A stretch of 20,000 bases of DNA from IMG/VR virus record IMGVR_UViG_3300020727_000006; one strand, written 5' to 3'. Shown piece after piece: positions 12,228 through 20,000 of the stretch. The notes below the pieces were generated by a model that had not been told where the DNA came from, did no database searches, and saw only the letters and a program-made list of their open reading frames with translations. This stretch comes from an uncultured virus (IMG/VR IMGVR_UViG_3300020727_000006) (Duplodnaviria; Heunggongvirae; Uroviricota; Caudoviricetes). A program made the translations under genes and the position numbers. The stretch's first letter is position 1; each line of letters begins with the position of its first letter.

Positions 12228-14179
12228 TTATTGTTGCCAATCCAATGATCATAATCTAATTGTGCAGTAAGTTTATCTAACAATTTTTGACTGTAAAATA
12301 AGTTATAGTTTGCCAATCGGCGTTCTTCTGTATCTTTAAATATCTTTTTCCAGTTATAATCTACAATTGTATCAAGTTGTTCATGAATCATATCGATTCG
12401 TTTATGCCAATCATCTTCAAAATCATAGCTATGATCTATGATATCATCAAATACATCAAACCCAAGTTCACGAAAAAAATTAACAAGCGTTGGATTGCCA
12501 AGAAATATTGGCATCTGACCCGCACGAAACGGCTTCCAACTTTTTTCACTAACATATAAATCTATAGTATTAACAGTTGTTTCAGTTACAAGATTAATAT
12601 ATGAGTTATGATAAGCTTCATCTTGAACAGAATAATCGATAGGATATTTTTCTGGAAGCCTATCACATAAACTTAGATAAGTTGGCAATATAGTGTCGTC
12701 ACAAAAATGCAACCCAGGCCTTTCTGTTTTTTCTTGTGCTTCATCAAAGTTATTATACATTGAAAACCGCAACTTATTGAACCAAGGTTTCTTTACTAAC
12801 TTTACAAAATTTTCTATTCTATGCGGTCTACTACGATCATTTAAGCAAGATATAGGATAGTGTCTATAAGAATTTGCAACTAAAAGTGGCGATGGTTTAT
12901 GGTCGTGTGATTGAAGATAACAATATGGAAAATACGCAGCTTTATCTAATGCGTTATTAAGATATTTTACATCACCAGTTAGTATTAAAAAATCATCAAA
13001 TGTTTTTGATAGTTCAGGAACTATTTTTTCTGTGGTATCATTATATGGACAATTTGATAAATCTATTATCAGCTTATCATTTTTAATGCCAGATTTTATT
13101 TTATCTATATCCATATCAAATTTTTTAGTTTTTTCAAAATCAAACAAATTCCAAAATGAAATAGAATTTTCTATAAAATTCCAATATTTTTTATGTTCAA
13201 CTATTTTTGGCTGACTTATGTTTATATTTGGTAACGATGTATCTAAAGTTATATGTTTAGTTAATTTCTTTAGCAAATCTTCGCTATAAAACAATTTACT
13301 ATTAGCAAGTCTGCGTTCAAGTGTATCTTCATAAATTTTAGGCCAATCATAACCACTTACTTTATCTATTTGTTCATGTACCATATCGATTCGTTTATGC
13401 CAATCTGATTCTGTGTCATAGCTATGATCTATGATATCATCAAACATATCAAATCCAATTTCTCGTAAAAATTTTACAATTTCTACGCCTGTTATATAAA
13501 GAGGAATCATGCCGCATTTTAATGGTTTATATGTTTTTTCAGATATAAAATACGATGAATTGCTAACAGAAGCATCCGTGATTAAACTTATATAACTGTT
13601 TCTCCAAGCAGGATTACTAACAGTCATCGCTGATGGATAAGTGCTAGGTTTATCTTTTATTAAATTTAAAAATTTAGGCAATATGTTTTTATTGGCATAT
13701 TGCACTTCTGTTTCATTGCTTTCATGTGCATGATTATAATTGTTGAAGATAGTATAATATGTTTTATCAAACCATGATTTAGTAGACATCTTGACAAAGT
13801 TTTCAACGCGATGCGGTCTGCTGCGACCATTTAAGCAAGATACTAGATATTTTCTTTGTGAATTTTTAATTAAGTTAGTATCAAAGTTGTCAGATGAGGT
13901 TGTATACAAGAACCAAGGAAAATAAACTATATTGTTTGTTGGTTTGTACCAATATTGTAAATTTCCAGATAAAATTAAAAACTTGTCATAAATTTTTTCA
14001 AGTTCGTTAACTATATCTTGAGTGGTTGAAAATTCTAAATCATTGCTTATATTAACAATAGGATATTCATTAGAATTAAATTTATTTTTAATAGTATTAA
14101 TAGGATCAAGATAATCGTAAATTTGCCAAGGCGGAGGTAATTTATCTACAAAATTTTTTAATTCTTGATAATATGTCAT
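12224..14179 (-). CDS. Tandem-duplicated glycosyltransferase-like protein (two GT10/exostosin-like domains)
   Basis: Each half has SCLN.RSRPHR.ENFVK, SYI.L.T, SEK..KP...G..P and GFD.FDDIIDHSYD.E.DWHKRIDM.HEQ. The DNA repeat offset is 993 bp. Confidence 0.65.
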   Translation of the reverse strand: MTYYQELKNFVDKLPPPWQIYDYLDPINTIKNKFNSNEYPIVNISNDLEFSTTQDIVNELEKIYDKFLILSGNLQYWYKPTNNIVYFPWFLYTTSSDNFDTNLIKNSQRKYLVSCLNGRSRPHRVENFVKMSTKSWFDKTYYTIFNNYNHAHESNETEVQYANKNILPKFLNLIKDKPSTYPSAMTVSNPAWRNSYISLITDASVSNSSYFISEKTYKPLKCGMIPLYITGVEIVKFLREIGFDMFDDIIDHSYDTESDWHKRIDMVHEQIDKVSGYDWPKIYEDTLERRLANSKLFYSEDLLKKLTKHITLDTSLPNINISQPKIVEHKKYWNFIENSISFWNLFDFEKTKKFDMDIDKIKSGIKNDKLIIDLSNCPYNDTTEKIVPELSKTFDDFLILTGDVKYLNNALDKAAYFPYCYLQSHDHKPSPLLVANSYRHYPISCLNDRSRPHRIENFVKLVKKPWFNKLRFSMYNNFDEAQEKTERPGLHFCDDTILPTYLSLCDRLPEKYPIDYSVQDEAYHNSYINLVTETTVNTIDLYVSEKSWKPFRAGQMPIFLGNPTLVNFFRELGFDVFDDIIDHSYDFEDDWHKRIDMIHEQLDTIVDYNWKKIFKDTEERRLANYNLFYSQKLLDKLTAQLDYDHWIGNNN

Positions 14180-14472
14180 TATCCACGATAAACCGTATAT
14201 GGATTTCCCAATCCACCCGTAAAAGCATTGCCGCCACTATATGTAATTACATAATTTGCGCCACTTGTGGATACACCACTAATAGTACCAGTTCCACCTG
14301 CAACGGTGATTTTCATGCCACTAGTTGGCATACCAGTTTTAAAATCGCTTTTCTTTACCGTCGCACTACGCAAACTACTGCCATTAGCAACAGCAATTAC
14401 GCCATTGGTTTGAGCAGTAGTAGTTGCACTTGTGCTATGTGGGCGTAGCAAACCATTGTGTAAACCAGGCAT
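14179..14472 (-). CDS. Small G/T/S/A-rich protein, probably virion-associated
   Basis: 97 aa, TAATG-coupled on both sides. Confidence 0.7.
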   Translation of the reverse strand: MPGLHNGLLRPHSTSATTTAQTNGVIAVANGSSLRSATVKKSDFKTGMPTSGMKITVAGGTGTISGVSTSGANYVITYSGGNAFTGGLGNPYTVYRG

Positions 14473-14771
14473 TACTGGCTCTTTAATTCAAGAACATTGC
14501 AAAGACCGCTAGTGGTACTTTGAATTGCTGCTACTTTGTCACCGCCATTGACAGCGATAAATTCAACACCACCGCCTACGATTAGCATACAATTTCCAGT
14601 ATTGAAAGCAGTAGGATTAGCACCCCATGCAATATAGGTATCTGCATTTGTTGTTACACGAAGTATACTTGCTACACTACTAAATGCAGCCGTTGAGTTG
14701 CTACTGCTGCCCGTGGTGATTGTTTGTGCATTTGCTACTGCATAGGCACCTTTTCTTAAAAGAACTGACAT
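14472..14771 (-). CDS. Small protein, probably virion-associated beta-sandwich
   Basis: 99 aa with motif LRVTTNADTYIAWGANPTA...GDKVAAI. GGGGA SD and ATAAATA upstream. Confidence 0.7.
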   Translation of the reverse strand: MSVLLRKGAYAVANAQTITTGSSSNSTAAFSSVASILRVTTNADTYIAWGANPTAFNTGNCMLIVGGGVEFIAVNGGDKVAAIQSTTSGLCNVLELKSQ

Positions 14772-14796
14772 TTATGATTCCCCGAATCTATAAGAA

Positions 14797-14803
14797 TATT
14801 TAT
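14797..14803 (-). promoter_or_regulatory. Putative T4-late-like promoter (ATAAATA)
   Basis: Heads the minus-strand run 14771->12224, back-to-back with the methyltransferase promoter. Confidence 0.5.
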
Positions 14804-14804
14804 C

Positions 14805-14833
14805 TTGACTTATATTATAAGAAATAGTAAATT
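14805..14833 (+). promoter_or_regulatory. Sigma70-type promoter, probably leaderless
   Basis: TTGACT (14805-14810), 17-nt spacer, TAAATT (14828-14833). ATG at 14840 is 6 nt downstream, with no SD. Confidence 0.6.
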
Positions 14834-14839
14834 ATATGT

Positions 14840-16063
14840 ATGGCAAATGTAACACTACTACACGGCGACTGCCGCGATCAACTCAAAACTCTACCTGACA
14901 ATAGCATTGACAGCATTGTAACTGATCCACCGTATGAACTTGGATTTATGGGTAAAAGTTGGGATGCCAGTGGCATCGCATATAATACGGATATGTGGCG
15001 TGAATGCTTGCGTGTACTAAAGCCAGGCGGACATATGCTTGCTTTTAGTGGTTCACGCACATATCATCGTATGACGGTTGCCATTGAAGATGCTGGTTTT
15101 GAAATTCGTGACCAAATTATGTGGGTGTATGGCACAGGGTTTCCAAAGAACCATGATGTTAGTAAAGCAATTGATGCCAAGATATTAACAGGCGGGTCAC
15201 ATAGTAAAAATATTAAATCTGCAATTGAACAGCGGCCTGGCGAAAGCAGAGAAACAGCAACTCTTCCAAATAATGGCGTTATGAGCGATGAACGCAAAGG
15301 TGGAATTACAAATGATAATCCCGCAACGCCAGAAGCGCAACAATGGAGCGGCTGGGGAACTGCACTTAAACCATCGCATGAACCAATTTGCGTAGCAAGA
15401 AAACCGTTGGGTGAAAAAACTGTTGCAGAAAATGTACTAAAGTATGGCACAGGTGCACTGAATATTGATGCTACTCGCGTTGAAGGCGAACCACCAAAAG
15501 CCATGATAGGAACTGGATGGGCAGCACAAGATAAGAAAAACGCAGAGCATGGCTTTCGTCCTAACGCATATTATACAGATCAAAATGGCGTAGAGTATGA
15601 ACCAAATGATCTTGGTCGTTGGCCAGCAAACTTTATTCATGATGGCAGCATAGAAACAGAATGGTCAAAGTTTTTCTATGGCGCAAAAGCAAGTCCACAA
15701 GATCGAAATGATGGTCTAGATGACTTTGAAGGTGGAAAAACAAATGACGGTCGCAAAGTAGATGCTAACAACGCTTATCAGCGCGGCGCAACTGTTAGAA
15801 AGAATACACATCCAACAGTAAAACCAACTGATTTAATGATTTACTTGTGCAAGATGGTAACACCGCCTAACGGGACTGTTCTTGATCCTTTTATGGGGTC
15901 GGGGTCAACTGGGCGAGGAGCAATCAATGGCGGGTTTAATTTTATTGGCATTGAGATGAGCCAAGAATATATTGATATTTCTCGTGCTCGTATTGCAATT
16001 GTTGAAAAAAGAGAAGAAGCTAAAATTAACACTGTGTTTAATAATTTATTTGAGGAAGAATAA
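14840..16063 (+). CDS. DNA N6-adenine/N4-cytosine methyltransferase, beta class
   Basis: Catalytic TDPPY near the N-terminus; HPTVKP and SAM-binding VLDPFMGSGST near the C-terminus. Confidence 0.95.
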   Translation: MANVTLLHGDCRDQLKTLPDNSIDSIVTDPPYELGFMGKSWDASGIAYNTDMWRECLRVLKPGGHMLAFSGSRTYHRMTVAIEDAGFEIRDQIMWVYGTGFPKNHDVSKAIDAKILTGGSHSKNIKSAIEQRPGESRETATLPNNGVMSDERKGGITNDNPATPEAQQWSGWGTALKPSHEPICVARKPLGEKTVAENVLKYGTGALNIDATRVEGEPPKAMIGTGWAAQDKKNAEHGFRPNAYYTDQNGVEYEPNDLGRWPANFIHDGSIETEWSKFFYGAKASPQDRNDGLDDFEGGKTNDGRKVDANNAYQRGATVRKNTHPTVKPTDLMIYLCKMVTPPNGTVLDPFMGSGSTGRGAINGGFNFIGIEMSQEYIDISRARIAIVEKREEAKINTVFNNLFEEE

Positions 16064-16329
16064 TGACCAAGCAGCTTGATAACAACTTGTTTGAAGAAGA
16101 GGAAACTCATACATTTAATCCACGAGATGAATGGAAAAACATGCCTGAATTTGTGCAAGAGAAACAAGAGCCATTTGCTAAGATCATTGTAAGATTTGAC
16201 AGTGCAGAGGCATTAGAAGAATTTAGTAAATTAATTGGACAAAAGCTTACGCCAAAAACAAAAAGCATTTGGCACCCTCAACTAGTTCGTGGTCTTAACG
16301 CAAGCAAGCGGTGGGTAGATGAATCCTAA
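16063..16329 (+). CDS. Small protein associated with the DNA-base glycosyltransferase
   Basis: Motif WKNMPEF.QE...IIVRF...IGQKLTPKTKSIWHP, which I recall next to GREB1/TAGT-like glycosyltransferases in phages; coupled on both sides. Confidence 0.65.
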   Translation: MTKQLDNNLFEEEETHTFNPRDEWKNMPEFVQEKQEPFAKIIVRFDSAEALEEFSKLIGQKLTPKTKSIWHPQLVRGLNASKRWVDES

Positions 16330-17179
16330 TCATCCAGTTTATATCGTGTCTAAAGGCAGATGGGAATCTAGGCTAACCAGTAAAGCACTGGAAGAAATCA
16401 ATGTGCCATATCATATTGTAGTTGAAGCAAGTGAATATGACAAATATGCCGCTGTCATTGATCCTAAAAAAATTCTTGTACTTGACCAAAAATACCTAGA
16501 TGAATATGATACATGCGATGACCTTGGAAGTACTAAGAGCAAAGGGCCTGGCGCTGCTAGAAACTTTGCATGGGAACATAGCATAAGCCAAGGCGCAACT
16601 AAACATTGGGTATTGGATGATAACTTTGATGCGTTTCATCGTTTTAATCGCAATGTTAAAGCAGAAGTTAAAAGCGGAACAATATTTAAAATTGCAGAAG
16701 ATTTTGTAGACAGATATGAAAATGTTCCAATAAGTGGATTTAACTATTATAGTTTCTGTAAAGCAACTGATGCAGTACCACCATTTGTATTGAACACTAG
16801 AATTTATTCTATTCTTCTTATACAAAACGATATACCATATCGTTGGCGTGGACGATACAATGAAGATACTGATCTATCATTGCGAGTATTAAAAGATGGG
16901 TTTTGTACTATCCAATTTAATACTTTCTTAGCTGGAAAAGTTACTACACAGCGGATGGCAGGTGGCAATACTGCTGACTTTTATAAACAAGAAGGCACGA
17001 TGGCAAAATCTCAGATGTTAGCTGATTTACATCCTGATGTTGCCAAAGTAGTATGGCGCTTTAATCGTTGGCACCACCATGTTGATTATCGTCCATTTAA
17101 AAATAACAAACTAATAAAAAAAGCAGGACTAGTAATTCCAGATCAAATTAATAATTATGGAATGAAGTTAGTGTCATAA
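16319..17179 (+). CDS. GREB1-like / TET-associated (TAGT) GT-A glycosyltransferase, probably DNA-base modifying
   Basis: Motifs VYIVSKGR, GPGAARNFAWEHS, HWVLDDN (DxD-like), NTRIYS, WRGRYNEDTDLSLRVLK and GGNT. Confidence 0.8.
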   Translation: MNPNHPVYIVSKGRWESRLTSKALEEINVPYHIVVEASEYDKYAAVIDPKKILVLDQKYLDEYDTCDDLGSTKSKGPGAARNFAWEHSISQGATKHWVLDDNFDAFHRFNRNVKAEVKSGTIFKIAEDFVDRYENVPISGFNYYSFCKATDAVPPFVLNTRIYSILLIQNDIPYRWRGRYNEDTDLSLRVLKDGFCTIQFNTFLAGKVTTQRMAGGNTADFYKQEGTMAKSQMLADLHPDVAKVVWRFNRWHHHVDYRPFKNNKLIKKAGLVIPDQINNYGMKLVS

Positions 17180-17204
17180 TACTGTCACAATAGTGTGATA
17201 AATT
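17171..17204 (+). promoter_or_regulatory. Pho box (PhoB site) with downstream -10 element
   Basis: GTGTCAT-AATA-CTGTCAC (17171-17188) vs the consensus CTGTCAT-A(A/T)A(T/A)-CTGTCA(C/T). TAAATT starts after a 10-nt spacer (17199-17204). Directly upstream of pstS. Confidence 0.85.
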
Positions 17205-17233
17205 ATGTTTAGCATTTCAAAGGAGAAAACCAT

Positions 17234-18163
17234 ATGCTAACTAGACTACTCACTGTTGCAGCAGCAACGATTATTGGTACAGCAGCGTATGCTGCTGAAA
17301 TTACAGGTGCAGGTGCTACCTTCCCATATCCAATTTATGCAAAATGGGCAGATGCTTATAAGAAGAGTTCAGGCAATACCTTAAACTATCAAGCAATCGG
17401 TAGTGGCGCAGGTATTAAACAGATTGAAGCTAAAACAGTTACATTTGGTGCTACTGATATTCCAGTAAAGCCAGAAGACCTTGAAAAGAAAGGTCAGGTA
17501 CAGTTCCCAATGATCGTTGGTGGTATTGTTCCAGTTGTAAATCTTAAAGAAGTTGCAAGTGGCAAGCTAGTTCTTTCAACTGACATCCTTGCCAAAATCT
17601 ATATGGAAAAGATCAAGCGTTGGAATGACAAGGAAATTGCAGCAATCAATCCTGGTGTCACATTACCAGACCTTCCAATCATCAAGATTCGTCGTAGTGA
17701 TGGTTCGGGAACAACTTGGAACTTCACTCGTTTCCTAGCAGAAGCAAATGCCGATTGGAAGAAGACATATAACTTTGGTCAATCAATTGAGTGGGTAGGC
17801 GGTGCTATTGGCGCTAATGGTAACGCTGGCGTTGCAGCAAATGTTCAGCAAACCAATGGTTCAATTGGTTATGTAGAATATGCTTATGCAAAGCAGAATG
17901 ATCTTACTGTTGCTAATATGATTGGTAGCGATGGCAAGTCAGTTGCTCCAAGCCTAAAGGCTTTCCAAACTACTTGGCCAATGGTTGCTACTTCTTATAT
18001 CGTAATGTATAAGGAACCAGGCGATAGTGATGCTTCAAAGGCTGCAATCAAGTTCTTTGAGTATGGTTTTGCCAATGATAAGATGGCAGAAGAACTAGAT
18101 TATGTTCCGTTAACTGCTGCTCAGAAGGCGGATGTAAAAAAAGTTTGGGCTAGCATAAAATAA
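17234..18163 (+). CDS. pstS: Phosphate ABC transporter substrate-binding protein PstS
   Basis: Signal peptide; ITGAGATFPYPIYAKWA, NYQAIGSGAG, FGATD, RRSDGSGTT and IGYVEYAYA; SD AAGGAG. Confidence 0.96.
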   Translation: MLTRLLTVAAATIIGTAAYAAEITGAGATFPYPIYAKWADAYKKSSGNTLNYQAIGSGAGIKQIEAKTVTFGATDIPVKPEDLEKKGQVQFPMIVGGIVPVVNLKEVASGKLVLSTDILAKIYMEKIKRWNDKEIAAINPGVTLPDLPIIKIRRSDGSGTTWNFTRFLAEANADWKKTYNFGQSIEWVGGAIGANGNAGVAANVQQTNGSIGYVEYAYAKQNDLTVANMIGSDGKSVAPSLKAFQTTWPMVATSYIVMYKEPGDSDASKAAIKFFEYGFANDKMAEELDYVPLTAAQKADVKKVWASIK

Positions 18164-18198
18164 CTCTTGACATATTAAGTCAATAGATGTATAAAGAG

Positions 18199-18231
18199 AA
18201 GGTGAGAGGGAAAACCCTTTCACCTTTTTTT
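18199..18231 (+). terminator. Intrinsic terminator after pstS
   Basis: 12-bp stem AAGGTGAGAGGG-AAAA-CCCTTTCACCTT (one G-U pair) followed by a T run. Confidence 0.85.
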
Positions 18232-18257
18232 ATTTTTAAAAAAGATAAAAAAAGTTC

Positions 18258-18287
18258 TTGACAAATATTTTTTATCGTGTATAAATA
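18258..18287 (+). promoter_or_regulatory. Promoter of the leader/HNH/tRNA unit (sigma70-type, overlapping an exact TATAAATA)
   Basis: TTGACA (18258-18263), 16-nt spacer, TATAAA (18280-18285). TATAAATA at 18280-18287 equals the T4 late consensus. Confidence 0.75.
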
Positions 18288-18309
18288 GAACTACAAATTG
18301 AGAGCAAAC

Positions 18310-18396
18310 ATGACTAACACGCCTAAACATTATGATTATAACATTTGCCGCATGCCAGAAGGTTTCTGGATGGTGGGGGCGTGTGCCTTGATGTGA
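18310..18396 (+). CDS. Putative attenuator leader peptide, 28 aa (MTNTPKHYDYNICRMPEGFWMVGACALM)
   Basis: Lies just after the promoter with a weak SD (GAGAG, 18300-18304). Overlaps segments 1 and 2 of the alternative helices and stops 24 nt before the terminator stem. Confidence 0.6.
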   Translation: MTNTPKHYDYNICRMPEGFWMVGACALM

Positions 18397-18452
18397 TATG
18401 CACATCATAGTATGCACTTAGCCCCCGAAGCGAAAGTTTCGGGGGTTTTTTT
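18317..18452 (+). promoter_or_regulatory. Putative ribosome-dependent transcription attenuator
   Basis: 1:2 helix ACACGCC(18317-23)/GGCGTGT(18378-84). 2:3 helix GGGGGC(18375-80)/GCCCCC(18421-26), extended by GTGC/GCAC and TGATGTG/CACATCA. 3:4 is the terminator. Confidence 0.7.
18420..18452 (+). terminator. Intrinsic terminator (attenuator 3:4)
   Basis: AGCCCCCGAAGC-GAAA-GTTTCGGGGGTT, running into a T tract. Confidence 0.92.
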
Positions 18453-18552
18453 ATATCTACGGGACGCTACTCCCCACGCATAAGAGTAGCCCTTGACTAG
18501 TACTGGCTCCAAATGGACGCAGGTGGTTTCAGCAAGGCAAAATTTAATATTA

Positions 18553-18603
18553 TAGCACGATGGTTTTTTGAACCATCGTGCTAAATACTCTCAAAGGAGT
18601 ATT
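18553..18603 (+). promoter_or_regulatory. 13-bp inverted repeat, CTAAATA late-like promoter and SD-sequestering hairpin of the HNH gene
   Basis: TAGCACGATGGTT(18553-65)/AACCATCGTGCTA(18571-83); CTAAATA at 18581-87; AATACTC(18584-90)/GAGTATT(18597-603) pairs over the GGAG SD. Confidence 0.7.
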
Positions 18604-18605
18604 AT

Positions 18606-18992
18606 ATGCCAAAAGGTTTCGTATCATCAACTGCGGGAAAAAATTATAATAAAATAATTGAGGCGGCTCAAAAAAGAGCATTTTCGGATGAAATTGTATT
18701 TGTTGAAAATTCATCACATCCAAGACATAGAGTAAAAGAAAGATTAATAAATCGCAATTTAATACCGCATTTATGCGAAGAATGTAATCAAGATTCTAAT
18801 TGGAATGGAAAAAAATTAGTTTTACAACTAGATCACATAAATGGTATTAACAATGACAACAGAATAGAAAATTTAAGATTTCTCTGTCCTAATTGTCATT
18901 CGCAGCAGGATACATATGCTGCAAAAAACAAATTAAATGAGGATAGAAAACCAAAGAAATATTACAAGTCTAAAAGAGCAGGAATAAGTTAA
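18606..18992 (+). CDS. HNH endonuclease, probably a free-standing homing endonuclease
   Basis: CEEC...LQLDHINGINNDNRIENLRFLCPNCHSQ. The last 15 nt overlap the tRNA. Confidence 0.92.
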   Translation: MPKGFVSSTAGKNYNKIIEAAQKRAFSDEIVFVENSSHPRHRVKERLINRNLIPHLCEECNQDSNWNGKKLVLQLDHINGINNDNRIENLRFLCPNCHSQQDTYAAKNKLNEDRKPKKYYKSKRAGIS

Positions 18993-19052
18993 TTGGCAAA
19001 CTATCAGTCTCCAAAACTGAAATTTCCAGATCGTTGCTGGATTCCTGTGCCA
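18978..19052 (+). tRNA. trnW: tRNA-Trp (anticodon CCA) with encoded 3' CCA
   Basis: Acceptor GCAGGAA/TTCCTGT, D-stem AGTT/AACT, anticodon arm TCAGT-CTCCAAA-ACTGA, T-arm TCCAG-ATCGTTG-CTGGA, discriminator G, then CCA. Confidence 0.92.
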
Positions 19053-19060
19053 TTTTTCTC

Positions 19061-19088
19061 TTGACAACCTTAAAAAACATGATATATT
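19061..19088 (+). promoter_or_regulatory. Sigma70-type promoter, probably leaderless
   Basis: TTGACA (19061-66), 16-nt spacer, TGnTATATT (-10 at 19083-88). ATG at 19095 is 6 nt downstream. Confidence 0.7.
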
Positions 19089-19094
19089 AGTAAT

Positions 19095-19331
19095 ATGGCT
19101 AGAGCATCAAAACCGCTTAACAAACCCGTTATTCCAGAGGATACCTGTCCTTATATTGACATGGTAATTGACCTTACTGAAAAGATGGCAAGTGATCCTA
19201 ACTATGATTGGCGTAATGAACAGCAAATACTTGTCAAAGCACTGCTAGAATATGTGCGTGAAAGCAACCAAAAACTGCGAATTTCATCCAAATTCTGGTA
19301 TGAACAGTACCAAAAAGTGTCAAAAAACTAA
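19095..19331 (+). CDS. Hypothetical protein
   Basis: 78 aa behind a promoter; motifs IPEDTCPYID and LEYVRESNQKLR. Confidence 0.75.
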   Translation: MARASKPLNKPVIPEDTCPYIDMVIDLTEKMASDPNYDWRNEQQILVKALLEYVRESNQKLRISSKFWYEQYQKVSKN

Positions 19332-19375
19332 GTTTTTGTGTCAAAATATTGGCAAACCTGTCAAAAAAATAACAC

Positions 19376-19403
19376 TTGACAACAATTTTAACTATGGTAT
19401 ATT
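19376..19403 (+). promoter_or_regulatory. Sigma70-type promoter, near-duplicate of 19061-19096
   Basis: TTGACA (19376-81), 16-nt spacer, TGnTATATT (-10 at 19398-403). SD AGGAG at 19421-25. Confidence 0.7.
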
Positions 19404-19432
19404 AGTAATATACCGCAGTTCAGGAGAATTAT

Positions 19433-20000
19433 ATGCGCAAGATTGCCCTATTTTCCCATCACCCACAATGCTCCCGTGACTCCACAAACGGCATTATTGC
19501 CGCCCTAAGTGGTGCTTACGATGTTGAGACCTTTCGAGTAGATGATGACTTTGGCGCTATTTTGGGCGAGGCTGACATCGTAGCCTTTCCTGGCGGTATC
19601 GGTGACAGTCAGTCATTTGACCATCTGCTTGGTGACAAGGTAGAGATGATCCAAGACTTCGTAACGCATGGTGGCAAGTATCTTGGTATCTGCATGGGTG
19701 CTTATTGGGCTGGTAGCCACTATTTCAACCTGCTTGATGGCGTAGACGCTGTTCAGTATATTCGCCGTCCACAGGCTTGCACGGCTCGTCCATATGGCAC
19801 TGTGGTAGAAGTAGATTGGTGTGGTGACAAGGAAGCCATGTACTTCTATGATGGTTGTGCATTGGTTGGTAACAAGCGTAAGTTTGAGACTGTTGCTACC
19901 TATGCTAACGGCGATGCTATGGCTATTCGCCAAGGCAATGTAGGTATCATCGGTTGCCATCCAGAGAGCCAAGAGTATTGGTTTGATACATGGCAATATA
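19433..20000 (+). CDS. Class I glutamine amidotransferase-like protein (BPL_N-like), cut by the window end
   Basis: Read manually, not in the ORF track: MRKIALFSHHPQCS...IVAFPGGIGD...GGKYLGICMGAYWAG...IIGCHPES. The Cys nucleophile elbow and HPE motif are present. Confidence 0.85.
   Translation, partial: MRKIALFSHHPQCSRDSTNGIIAALSGAYDVETFRVDDDFGAILGEADIVAFPGGIGDSQSFDHLLGDKVEMIQDFVTHGGKYLGICMGAYWAGSHYFNLLDGVDAVQYIRRPQACTARPYGTVVEVDWCGDKEAMYFYDGCALVGNKRKFETVATYANGDAMAIRQGNVGIIGCHPESQEYWFDTWQY

Follow-up and report, generated by a model that had tools for sequence, protein, structure and literature searches.

A candidate ribosome-mediated transcription attenuator at the head of an RNA-gene unit in an uncultured phage

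We analysed a 20,000-nucleotide stretch of DNA (hereafter the window) from an uncultured virus of the Caudoviricetes, IMG/VR record IMGVR_UViG_3300020727_000006. Near its 3' end, a short leader that begins at a promoter at position 18258 and ends at an intrinsic terminator at 18452 lies directly ahead of a structured RNA, here named RNA-X, and of a tRNA-Trp gene. We propose that this leader may serve the phage RNA-gene unit behind it as a ribosome-mediated transcription attenuator, a reading that we regard as an even call. An earlier annotation of the same DNA from its letters alone (the original prediction) had listed a promoter, a 28-codon open reading frame (ORF), a terminator, an HNH gene and tRNA-Trp; all five can be read from the sequence where it had placed them (Table 1). 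It had also proposed that the leader follows the logic of the trp and his attenuators and controls a tRNA unit, and both of these proposals are modified below.

Alternative pairings in a short open frame

From the observed elements, their conservation and their alternative pairings, translation of the leader, termination at its end and the switch between the two would proceed as follows. The promoter at 18258 would start a transcript whose first 142 nucleotides hold a short translated frame, and the last codons of this frame carry a G-rich segment (18375-86, segment B) able to pair with the 5' arm of the terminator and its flank (18414-26). A leading ribosome that keeps pace to the end of the frame would cover the segment, the 12-bp terminator would form, and transcription would end at 18452. 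A ribosome that lags or stalls in about codons 2-17 would leave the segment free to capture the terminator 5' arm before the polymerase has made the 3' arm, and transcription would then continue into RNA-X and tRNA-Trp or, in relatives, into a longer tRNA cluster. In untranslated RNA of the window type, 18317-24 would fold onto 18377-84, also favouring termination, and in two divergent relatives (L130 and L136, described below) untranslated RNA would be expected to allow read-through. The signal would be general decoding speed rather than the supply of one amino acid.

Folding of the window RNA is consistent with these states. In its fold of lowest energy (-58.1 kcal/mol; z = -4.60; none of 200 shuffles equally stable), 18293-18455 contains the hairpins at 18355-69 and 18389-18407, the terminator and a 1:2 pairing in which ACACGCC(U) at 18317-24 is joined to (G)GGCGUGU at 18377-84 (ACACGCCU with GGGCGUGU). 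The pairing of ACACGCC with segment B that the original prediction claimed is part of this fold, and the anti-terminator helices that it described also exist: GGGGGC (18375-80) pairs with GCCCCC (18421-26), GUGC with GCAC, the precise positions being 18383-86 and 18414-17, and the hairpin 18389-95/18401-07 lies between them. For a nascent transcript that ends at 18431, the minimum-energy fold is the anti-terminator with all three helices. The duplex between the 3' part of the ORF and the terminator 5' arm has an energy of -21.5 kcal/mol, a value that 9 of 2000 dinucleotide-shuffled ORFs attained; when the same test was applied to the divergent leaders, shuffles reached the energy in 66 of 2000 (L130) and 48 of 2000 (L136) cases. 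Folding of the nascent window RNA under a 30-nt ribosome mask reproduced the expected effects of a stalled and of a terminating ribosome. The anti-terminator forms when codon 4, 8, 10, 13 or 16 occupies the A site. A ribosome whose A site holds codon 20 (TGG) or the stop codon covers segment B and prevents the anti-terminator from forming.

Relatives of the leader were gathered by PstS (the product of the gene upstream in the window) and sequence-pattern searches of viral contigs, metagenome contigs and prokaryote genomes, and by a peptide-based scan. These yielded 20 distinct leaders of the window type and three that diverge strongly and are richer in G+C (L130, L136/L148 and L159/L160); five further loci end before the promoter in the available sequence. 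The 20 and the three have in common a promoter, a start signal ahead of a frame that is open for 26-50 codons, a G-rich late segment that pairs with the terminator 5' arm, and a terminator. The genes upstream differ, being PstS in most relatives and other genes in L138, L130 and L136, and tRNA genes follow the unit in every locus with enough downstream sequence. The tRNA order in G002 is Trp, Cys, Asp, Glu, Ile, Met, Lys, Arg, Gly, His, Tyr, Met, Pro, Lys, Asn, Leu, Thr, Ser, Gly; L130 has Cys, Asp, His, Tyr and Pro with no ORFs intervening, and L136/L148 and L159 have Glu, Ile and His. The prokaryote-genome search gave a single match, a phage-like 8.4-kb contig (L154) filed as a Gammaproteobacteria metagenome-assembled genome, which is too weak a basis for naming a host. 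Cultured phage records contained no DNA match for 18160-18610 or 14000-20000 and no protein match for the 651-aa ORF.

The signals for transcription and translation are retained throughout this set. TTGAC(A/G) and TATAA occur in 23 of 23 distinct promoter-to-terminator stretches and in L159; the promoter at 18258 is omitted by a promoter scan of the window, apparently because the scan rule requires a T at the last -10 position. The Shine-Dalgarno-like GAGAG is found in 20/20 window-type leaders (as GAGAA in L011) with a variable spacer to the ATG, and in L130, L136 and L159 the ATG stands 7-8 nt past the -10 element, which is a leaderless spacing. The frame, which an ORF listing gives in a TTG-extended form (18298-18396), is open in all 23 stretches (26-50 codons) and in L159, and the indels preserve it (+3 in both L011 and L142, and all those that separate L130 from L136).

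The alternative helices are retained as well. Across the 20 window-type sequences, 100% of anti-terminator cells are paired, as is the terminator, which ranks first among the 18 terminator-like sites listed for the window; the figures are 99.8% for the terminator-state helices together and 99.4% for the 1:2 pairing (one cell is broken, and two changes, each on one side only, give wobble pairs). GGGGCGTGTGCC of segment B is unchanged in 20/20 of these leaders, third codon positions included, and L085 has A for the first G. Variation in the anti-terminator occurs at pair 95:147 (G-C in 17, G-U in two and A-U in one, L085) and at pair 103:137 (G-C in 19, G-U in one). The sole compensatory pair of the terminator state lies in hairpin C, where it is A-U in 13 and G-C in 7 sequences and paired in 100%. 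The hairpin within the ORF shows one A-to-G change that leaves a G-U pair, and an altered loop in L011. In that same relative the diverged 5' segment is still complementary to segment B, with an extension by CCCC:GGGG.

The divergent leaders L130, L136 and L159 have a different terminator sequence at the equivalent position. In L130 and L136 the anti-terminator is a contiguous helix between (C)GGGGUGU in the last codons and (G)CACCCC(G) at the foot of this different terminator. The naked leaders fold into it, at -85.5 versus -78.2 kcal/mol with the terminator enforced in L130 and at -77.2 versus -73.4 kcal/mol in L136, and the full terminator is restored in the fold when the G-rich segment is blocked. 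In L159, ACACCCC converts a U-G pair to U-A, the terminator carries compensating changes, and the minimum-energy fold is the terminator state.

The position of the terminator relative to the genes that follow also bears on its role. Only about 10 nt separate its U-run from RNA-X, and none of the 60 promoter-like sites listed in the window by a sigma-70 scan lies between the two. In L005, L085 and L088 a 52-codon ORF with an AAGGAG site begins 12 nt past the U-run, ahead of RNA-X (2294-2452 in L085); it lacks its own promoter, and no family reaches the Pfam threshold for it. Given that there is no room for a promoter before RNA-X or the 52-codon ORF, transcription through the terminator is needed for the downstream genes.

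Comparison of the codons suggests where the constraint on the frame lies. The two codons after Trp are hypervariable (MV, IE, IT, NG, TE, SE, VV, MM or GV), the first 21 positions of L011 have a different residue order drawn from the same set of 15 amino acids as in the window, and L136-type variants place E or N inside a hydrophobic stretch. Between L130 and L136, 19 codons differ by amino acid, 5 differ synonymously and 20 are shared. In 19 window-type sequences (L011 and L135, whose 5' halves cannot be aligned, were left out), third positions are unchanged in 18343-69 (ATT TGC CGC ATG CCA GAA GGT TTC TGG) and in 18375-87 (GGG GCG TGT GCC), save for one synonymous change of GAA to GAG. With a loose peptide and frozen third positions, the constraint is therefore on the RNA, and the pattern would fit an RNA whose translation counts for more than its product.

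Table 1. Features of the leader and of the genes that follow it (window coordinates)
Feature	Position	Strand	Description
Promoter	18258..18287	+	TTGACA 18258-63, 16-nt spacer, TATAAATA 18280-87; read from sequence
Shine-Dalgarno-like GAGAG	18300..18304	+	5 nt ahead of ATG 18310
Leader ORF	18310..18396	+	28 codons plus TGA 18394-96; MTNTPKHYDYNICRMPEGFWMVGACALM
Segment 1 (A)	18317..18324	+	ACACGCCU; partner 18377-84
Hairpin within ORF	18355..18369	+	CCAGAA-GGU-UUCUGG; 100% paired in 20 sequences
Segment 2 (B)	18375..18386	+	GGGGGC GU GUGC; anti-terminator 5' strand, in the last codons of the ORF
Hairpin C	18389..18407	+	UGAUGUG AUAUG CACAUCA; starts at or adjoining the stop codon; stems 18389-95/18401-07
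Anti-terminator 3' strand	18414..18426	+	GCAC 18414-17 and GCCCCC 18421-26 (also terminator 5' arm)
Intrinsic terminator	18420..18452	+	stem 18420-47, 12 bp (7 G-C), GAAA loop, seven U to 18452
RNA-X	18460..18541	+	structured RNA of ~80 nt; P1 18466-72/18484-91; P2 18492-99/18531-37; inner hairpin on CCAAAUGG
Homing-endonuclease cassette	18549..18977	+	hairpin 18556-86; HNH ORF 18606-18992 runs into the tRNA
tRNA-Trp (CCA)	18978..19052	+	ARAGORN; Rfam tRNA 48.1 bits; first tRNA of the cluster
Next promoter	19061..19088	+	TTGACA-16-TATATT, 11/12 matches; its ORF starts at 19095, leaderless spacing

Objections, rival explanations and the putative signal

Several observations weigh against attenuation. 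At full length, the window RNA is more stable in the terminator state than in the anti-terminator state, by about 12 kcal/mol, so any effect of the switch must be kinetic; the choice between terminator and anti-terminator is kinetic in known attenuators too. Apart from the two variable pairs described above, the helices between segment B and the terminator arm are invariant, and their support from variation consists of one compensatory pair, in L085 alone, and two one-sided changes compatible with pairing. The 1:2 pairing is not retained in L130 and L136, in which the naked RNA favours the anti-terminator, and the three-state logic is therefore not general; in L130, moreover, the stop codon lies 12-19 nt beyond segment B, so that a terminating ribosome would mask the segment only partly. 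Classical attenuators are defined in part by a run or enrichment of one regulatory codon, and no codon shows either in these leaders, which have only incidental tandem pairs and use 15-20 different residues per peptide, and for lack of such a run the leader is not an amino-acid sensor of the trp/his type. Parts of the peptide are conserved (ICRMPEGFW..GACA and WL.AGV..CG.DR.VELPA.G), and a functional small protein is possible. Finally, a phage-specific promoter type downstream could be invisible to the sigma-70 scan. The trp/his-like logic of the original prediction is partly supported: it agrees with the anatomy, with the ribosome-mask folding and with the relatives, and falls short in the missing codon run and in the absence of the 1:2 pairing in L130/L136. 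The conserved small ORF with covarying helices that it suggested looking for in related phages is found as a conserved unit, with covariation in the anti-terminator limited to the one compensatory pair.

Part of this evidence would suit an ordinary small early gene, whose peptide of 26-50 aa has a function of its own and which ends at a strong terminator; leak at a fixed rate would then feed RNA-X and the tRNAs, and the complementarity between ORF and terminator would be non-regulatory. Such a gene would account for the conserved frame and start signals, for peptide motifs common within each type and for the absence of regulatory codons, and the terminator fold is indeed the stable state of the full-length window RNA. 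We nevertheless judge it unlikely, given that the peptide spans 26 to 50 aa with no Pfam or PHROG match, tolerates radical substitutions and has a different residue order in L011, that synonymous sites are frozen at the helices, and that the anti-terminator complementarity exceeds that of shuffles in three lineages and is the minimum-energy fold in L130 and L136.

Alternatively, the switch could be real and be set by a phage or host RNA-binding protein or by a small ligand, PyrR/TRAP-like or riboswitch-like, at the invariant GGGGGCGUGUGCC region or at the 1:2 domain, the ORF being secondary. The core is invariant at the nucleotide level, the 3' strand of the closing helix is shared with the anti-terminator as in OFF riboswitches, and weak Rfam matches below threshold are present (PyrR at 22.9 bits against a gathering threshold of 54, His_leader at 21.6 bits against 49). 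The 5' half of L011 is replaced, however, and the whole domain is different in L130/L136, while ORF and anti-terminator persist, unlike what a conserved aptamer or protein site would show; no Rfam family matches the leader at threshold, and the conserved start signals and frame would be unexplained, all of which makes this explanation quite unlikely. On the same grounds of a replaced L011 half, a different domain in L130 and L136 and no family at threshold, there is no conserved aptamer core and a riboswitch was rejected, as was a T-box leader, for which Rfam gives no match at E up to 10 in 18150-19100. It is very improbable that the leader serves to make the terminated 160-nt transcript as a product in its own right, a trans-acting small RNA that may have a dual function with the peptide in the manner of rnTrpL/peTrpL, with the downstream genes independent of it. 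The leader is a strongly structured, nucleotide-conserved RNA with its own promoter and terminator, and the available portions of two reports provide a precedent in the attenuator-derived rnTrpL/peTrpL (PMC6614838, PMC7968998). No target was found for such an RNA, and none was looked for. A small RNA would leave the transcription of the promoterless RNA-X and of the relatives' 52-codon ORF unexplained, and it is compatible with attenuation, so that it constitutes no true alternative.

The window peptide has 18 different residues in 28, a diversity matched by 1.0% of background windows, and the L130 and L136 peptides contain all 20 residues in 48 and 50 positions, matched by 2.0% and 2.5%. All 20 residues are also present in 4/5 further L136-type proteins, and the other window-type variants have 15-17; by length, leaders of 26-32 codons contain 15-18 different amino acids and the 48-50-codon versions all 20 (19 in P0002). 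The test of residue diversity was post hoc and made on related lineages, and its outcome is a suggestive lead that fits a sensor of general decoding speed. We tentatively propose, as less likely than not, that the leader is a decoding-speed test which samples most or all amino acids: a shortage of usable tRNAs would make the ribosome lag, the anti-terminator would form, and the phage tRNA genes and RNA-X would be switched on in a feedback loop. The shortage could stem from a mismatch in codon usage, from starvation or from cleavage of host tRNAs by anticodon nucleases.

Three more specific signals or modes of action were tried and rejected. The leader codons could be a sample of the phage's own tRNA set, and in five comparisons from four records against codon usage 17/20, 13/20, 14/20, 15/20 and 12/20 are decodable, which is not significant (p = 0.056, 0.19, 0.67, 0.14 and 0.12; an earlier run on window codon usage had given p = 0.037). 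Sensing of Trp in particular would draw on the one invariant TGG and on tRNA-Trp as the first tRNA, but when TGG is in the A site, the ribosome occupies 18352-81 and hides segment B, so that termination is favoured, and the first tRNAs in L130, L136 and L159 are Cys or Glu. Direct occlusion of the pyrBI type is excluded by distance: the stop codon is 24 nt short of the stem, too far for a terminating ribosome to reach the terminator.

RNA-X, tRNA genes and genome context

The first gene that the leader would regulate is RNA-X, which the original prediction overlooked in taking HNH as the first gene downstream. RNA-X is a well-supported structured RNA outside the known Rfam families. Nine of its 22 predicted pairs show changes in both partners among 22 distinct sequences, with pairing kept in 99.8% of cells; cells changed on both sides number 80, as compared to 28.4 +/- 4.3 in column shuffles (0 of 500 reach the observed value) and at most 18 in slid controls. 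The molecule combines three supported helices with long invariant unpaired stretches (AGUACU, CCAAAUGG and AGGUGGUUUC), and its core is identical in L130 and L136, where the leaders otherwise resist alignment. Searches with a covariance model recovered a single copy from each of five records, a complete genome included, and none from L159/L160 or from the Pseudomonas jumbo phage PA5oct. In the window and six relatives only tRNA passes the Rfam gathering threshold, and the sole Rfam overlap with 18460-18541 is a chance-level snoRNA match (E 2.1).

Other non-coding elements lie downstream of the terminator in some relatives. In L148 (950-1080) and L085 (2560-2700, + strand), RNA-X is followed by a non-tRNA element in which a stem of ~15-17 bp is closed beside a canonical T-arm, GGUUCGAUUCC. 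ARAGORN makes no call on it, and Rfam gives only chance-level matches to the T-arms of tRNA-Sec and tmRNA; by its structure it is a predicted tRNA-like RNA. L153 (906-977, equal to L008 5343-5414) has, directly after RNA-X, an ARAGORN tRNA-like gene with a two-base 'anticodon'. L159, which is without RNA-X, has a different 220-nt non-coding stretch (1720-1940) between the terminator and tRNA-Glu.

Between RNA-X and tRNA-Trp, the HNH gene of the window (Pfam HNH, E 5e-4; phrog_10822, E 6.8e-34) is a mobile insertion. In L134 and L138, which are without the cassette, tRNA-Trp starts right after the AAAATTTAAT that follows RNA-X, and L003 and L083 have a different ORF at the cassette site (3510-4205 in L003) with sub-threshold matches to GIY-YIG and NUMOD3, likely a homing endonuclease gene of that kind. 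The tRNA-Trp that adjoins the HNH cassette is a divergent allele. The original prediction had warned that a late-like promoter at 18581 might bypass the switch; because the cassette is a mobile insertion, this promoter is a component of the cassette and is outside the conserved unit.

Directly after tRNA-Trp a new promoter begins, and the window-type switch therefore directly governs RNA-X and tRNA-Trp only. The claim of control over a tRNA unit accordingly holds in the sense that the leader heads a large tRNA cluster in relatives, and has to be narrowed to these two genes for direct control in the window type. This promoter is one of two near-identical ones (TTGACA-16-TATATTAGTAAT) at 19061-19097 and 19376-19435, the first of which sets the ATG of a 78-codon ORF 7 nt past the -10 element. 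Together with the leaderless leaders of L130, L136 and L159, this leaderless 78-codon ORF suggests a host that translates leaderless mRNAs well.

Upstream of the leader, three genes stand in a row at 14840-18163: those for a DNA methylase, for a TET-associated glycosyltransferase (Pfam TAGT, E 5.9e-46; phrog_842) and for the phosphate-binding protein PstS. They hint at hypermodified DNA and at an auxiliary gene for phosphate uptake in a phage of the jumbo type. PstS has its own terminator at 18194-18231. A promoter-like site, TTGACA-17-TATAAA, lies immediately before this hairpin (18169-18231), and a transcript from it would be little beyond the hairpin. The window is part of a large phage: its nearest record in the collections searched, G001, is a 14.9-kb fragment that ends inside the region, and the relative G003, which has the leader unit, is a complete genome of 338,435 bp with terminal repeats and a large terminase 53.6% identical to that of PA5oct.

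Significance and comparison with known systems

The tRNA genes of phages are commonly regarded as constitutive cargo. Should translation of the leader gate them, the phage would supply tRNA on demand, with implications for the way large phages deal with codon mismatch and with tRNA-cutting host defences. Attenuation by a leader peptide would then reach RNA genes besides amino-acid operons, viruses besides bacteria, and the sensing of overall decoding speed besides that of single amino acids; with feedback through decoding speed, a virus would gauge the translation capacity of its host and top it up as needed. RNA-X is a separate matter, a new structured RNA that occurs once per genome, beside the first tRNA gene.

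In the titles and abstracts of the literature we found no attenuation of phage tRNA genes. The nearest phage parallels concern gene content. The tRNA cluster of phage T4 includes two small stable RNAs of unknown function and has homing endonuclease genes nearby, and it resembles the unit described here as a phage tRNA cluster co-transcribed with structured RNAs other than tRNA, with homing endonuclease genes close by; we know of no leader frame or attenuator described for it. PA5oct is likewise a large myovirus-type genome with a tRNA cluster (12 genes). Unlike the unit described here, its cluster is preceded by tandem TTGCAA-17-TATAAT promoter-like sites; the 700 nt scanned before the cluster contain no terminator-like site, and PA5oct has neither the leader module nor RNA-X.

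The classical leader-peptide attenuators are those of the enterobacterial amino-acid operons trp, his, leu, thr, ilv and pheA. Like them, the phage leader has a promoter-proximal short frame, an intrinsic terminator before the genes that would be regulated, an anti-terminator that uses the terminator 5' arm, a stop codon placed such that a terminating ribosome would cover the anti-terminator 5' strand and, in the window type, a 1:2 pairing for termination of untranslated RNA. It differs from them in having no run of cognate codons, in the absence of the 1:2 pairing from distant relatives, in its sub-threshold His_leader score in Rfam, and in that the regulated genes would be phage RNA genes (a structured RNA and tRNAs) instead of biosynthetic enzymes. 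By sequence, the leader thus appears to have the structure of a leader-peptide attenuator without its regulatory codons, and we keep it apart from the trp/his class. Leader-ORF attenuators that sense general ribosome stalling are found ahead of resistance genes, as in bmrB-bmrCD and ermK. The mef/mel leader is a further stall-sensing leader attenuator, as far as the available part of its description goes (PMC4335068). With these resistance leaders the phage leader would share read-through upon stalling in a short frame, with no need for a run of codons for one amino acid. Theirs control bacterial resistance genes and answer antibiotics, whereas the genes at stake here are phage RNA genes and the frame contains no known stalling motif. 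On this comparison, the logic of the phage leader appears closer to that of the stall-sensing resistance leaders than to that of the trp/his class.

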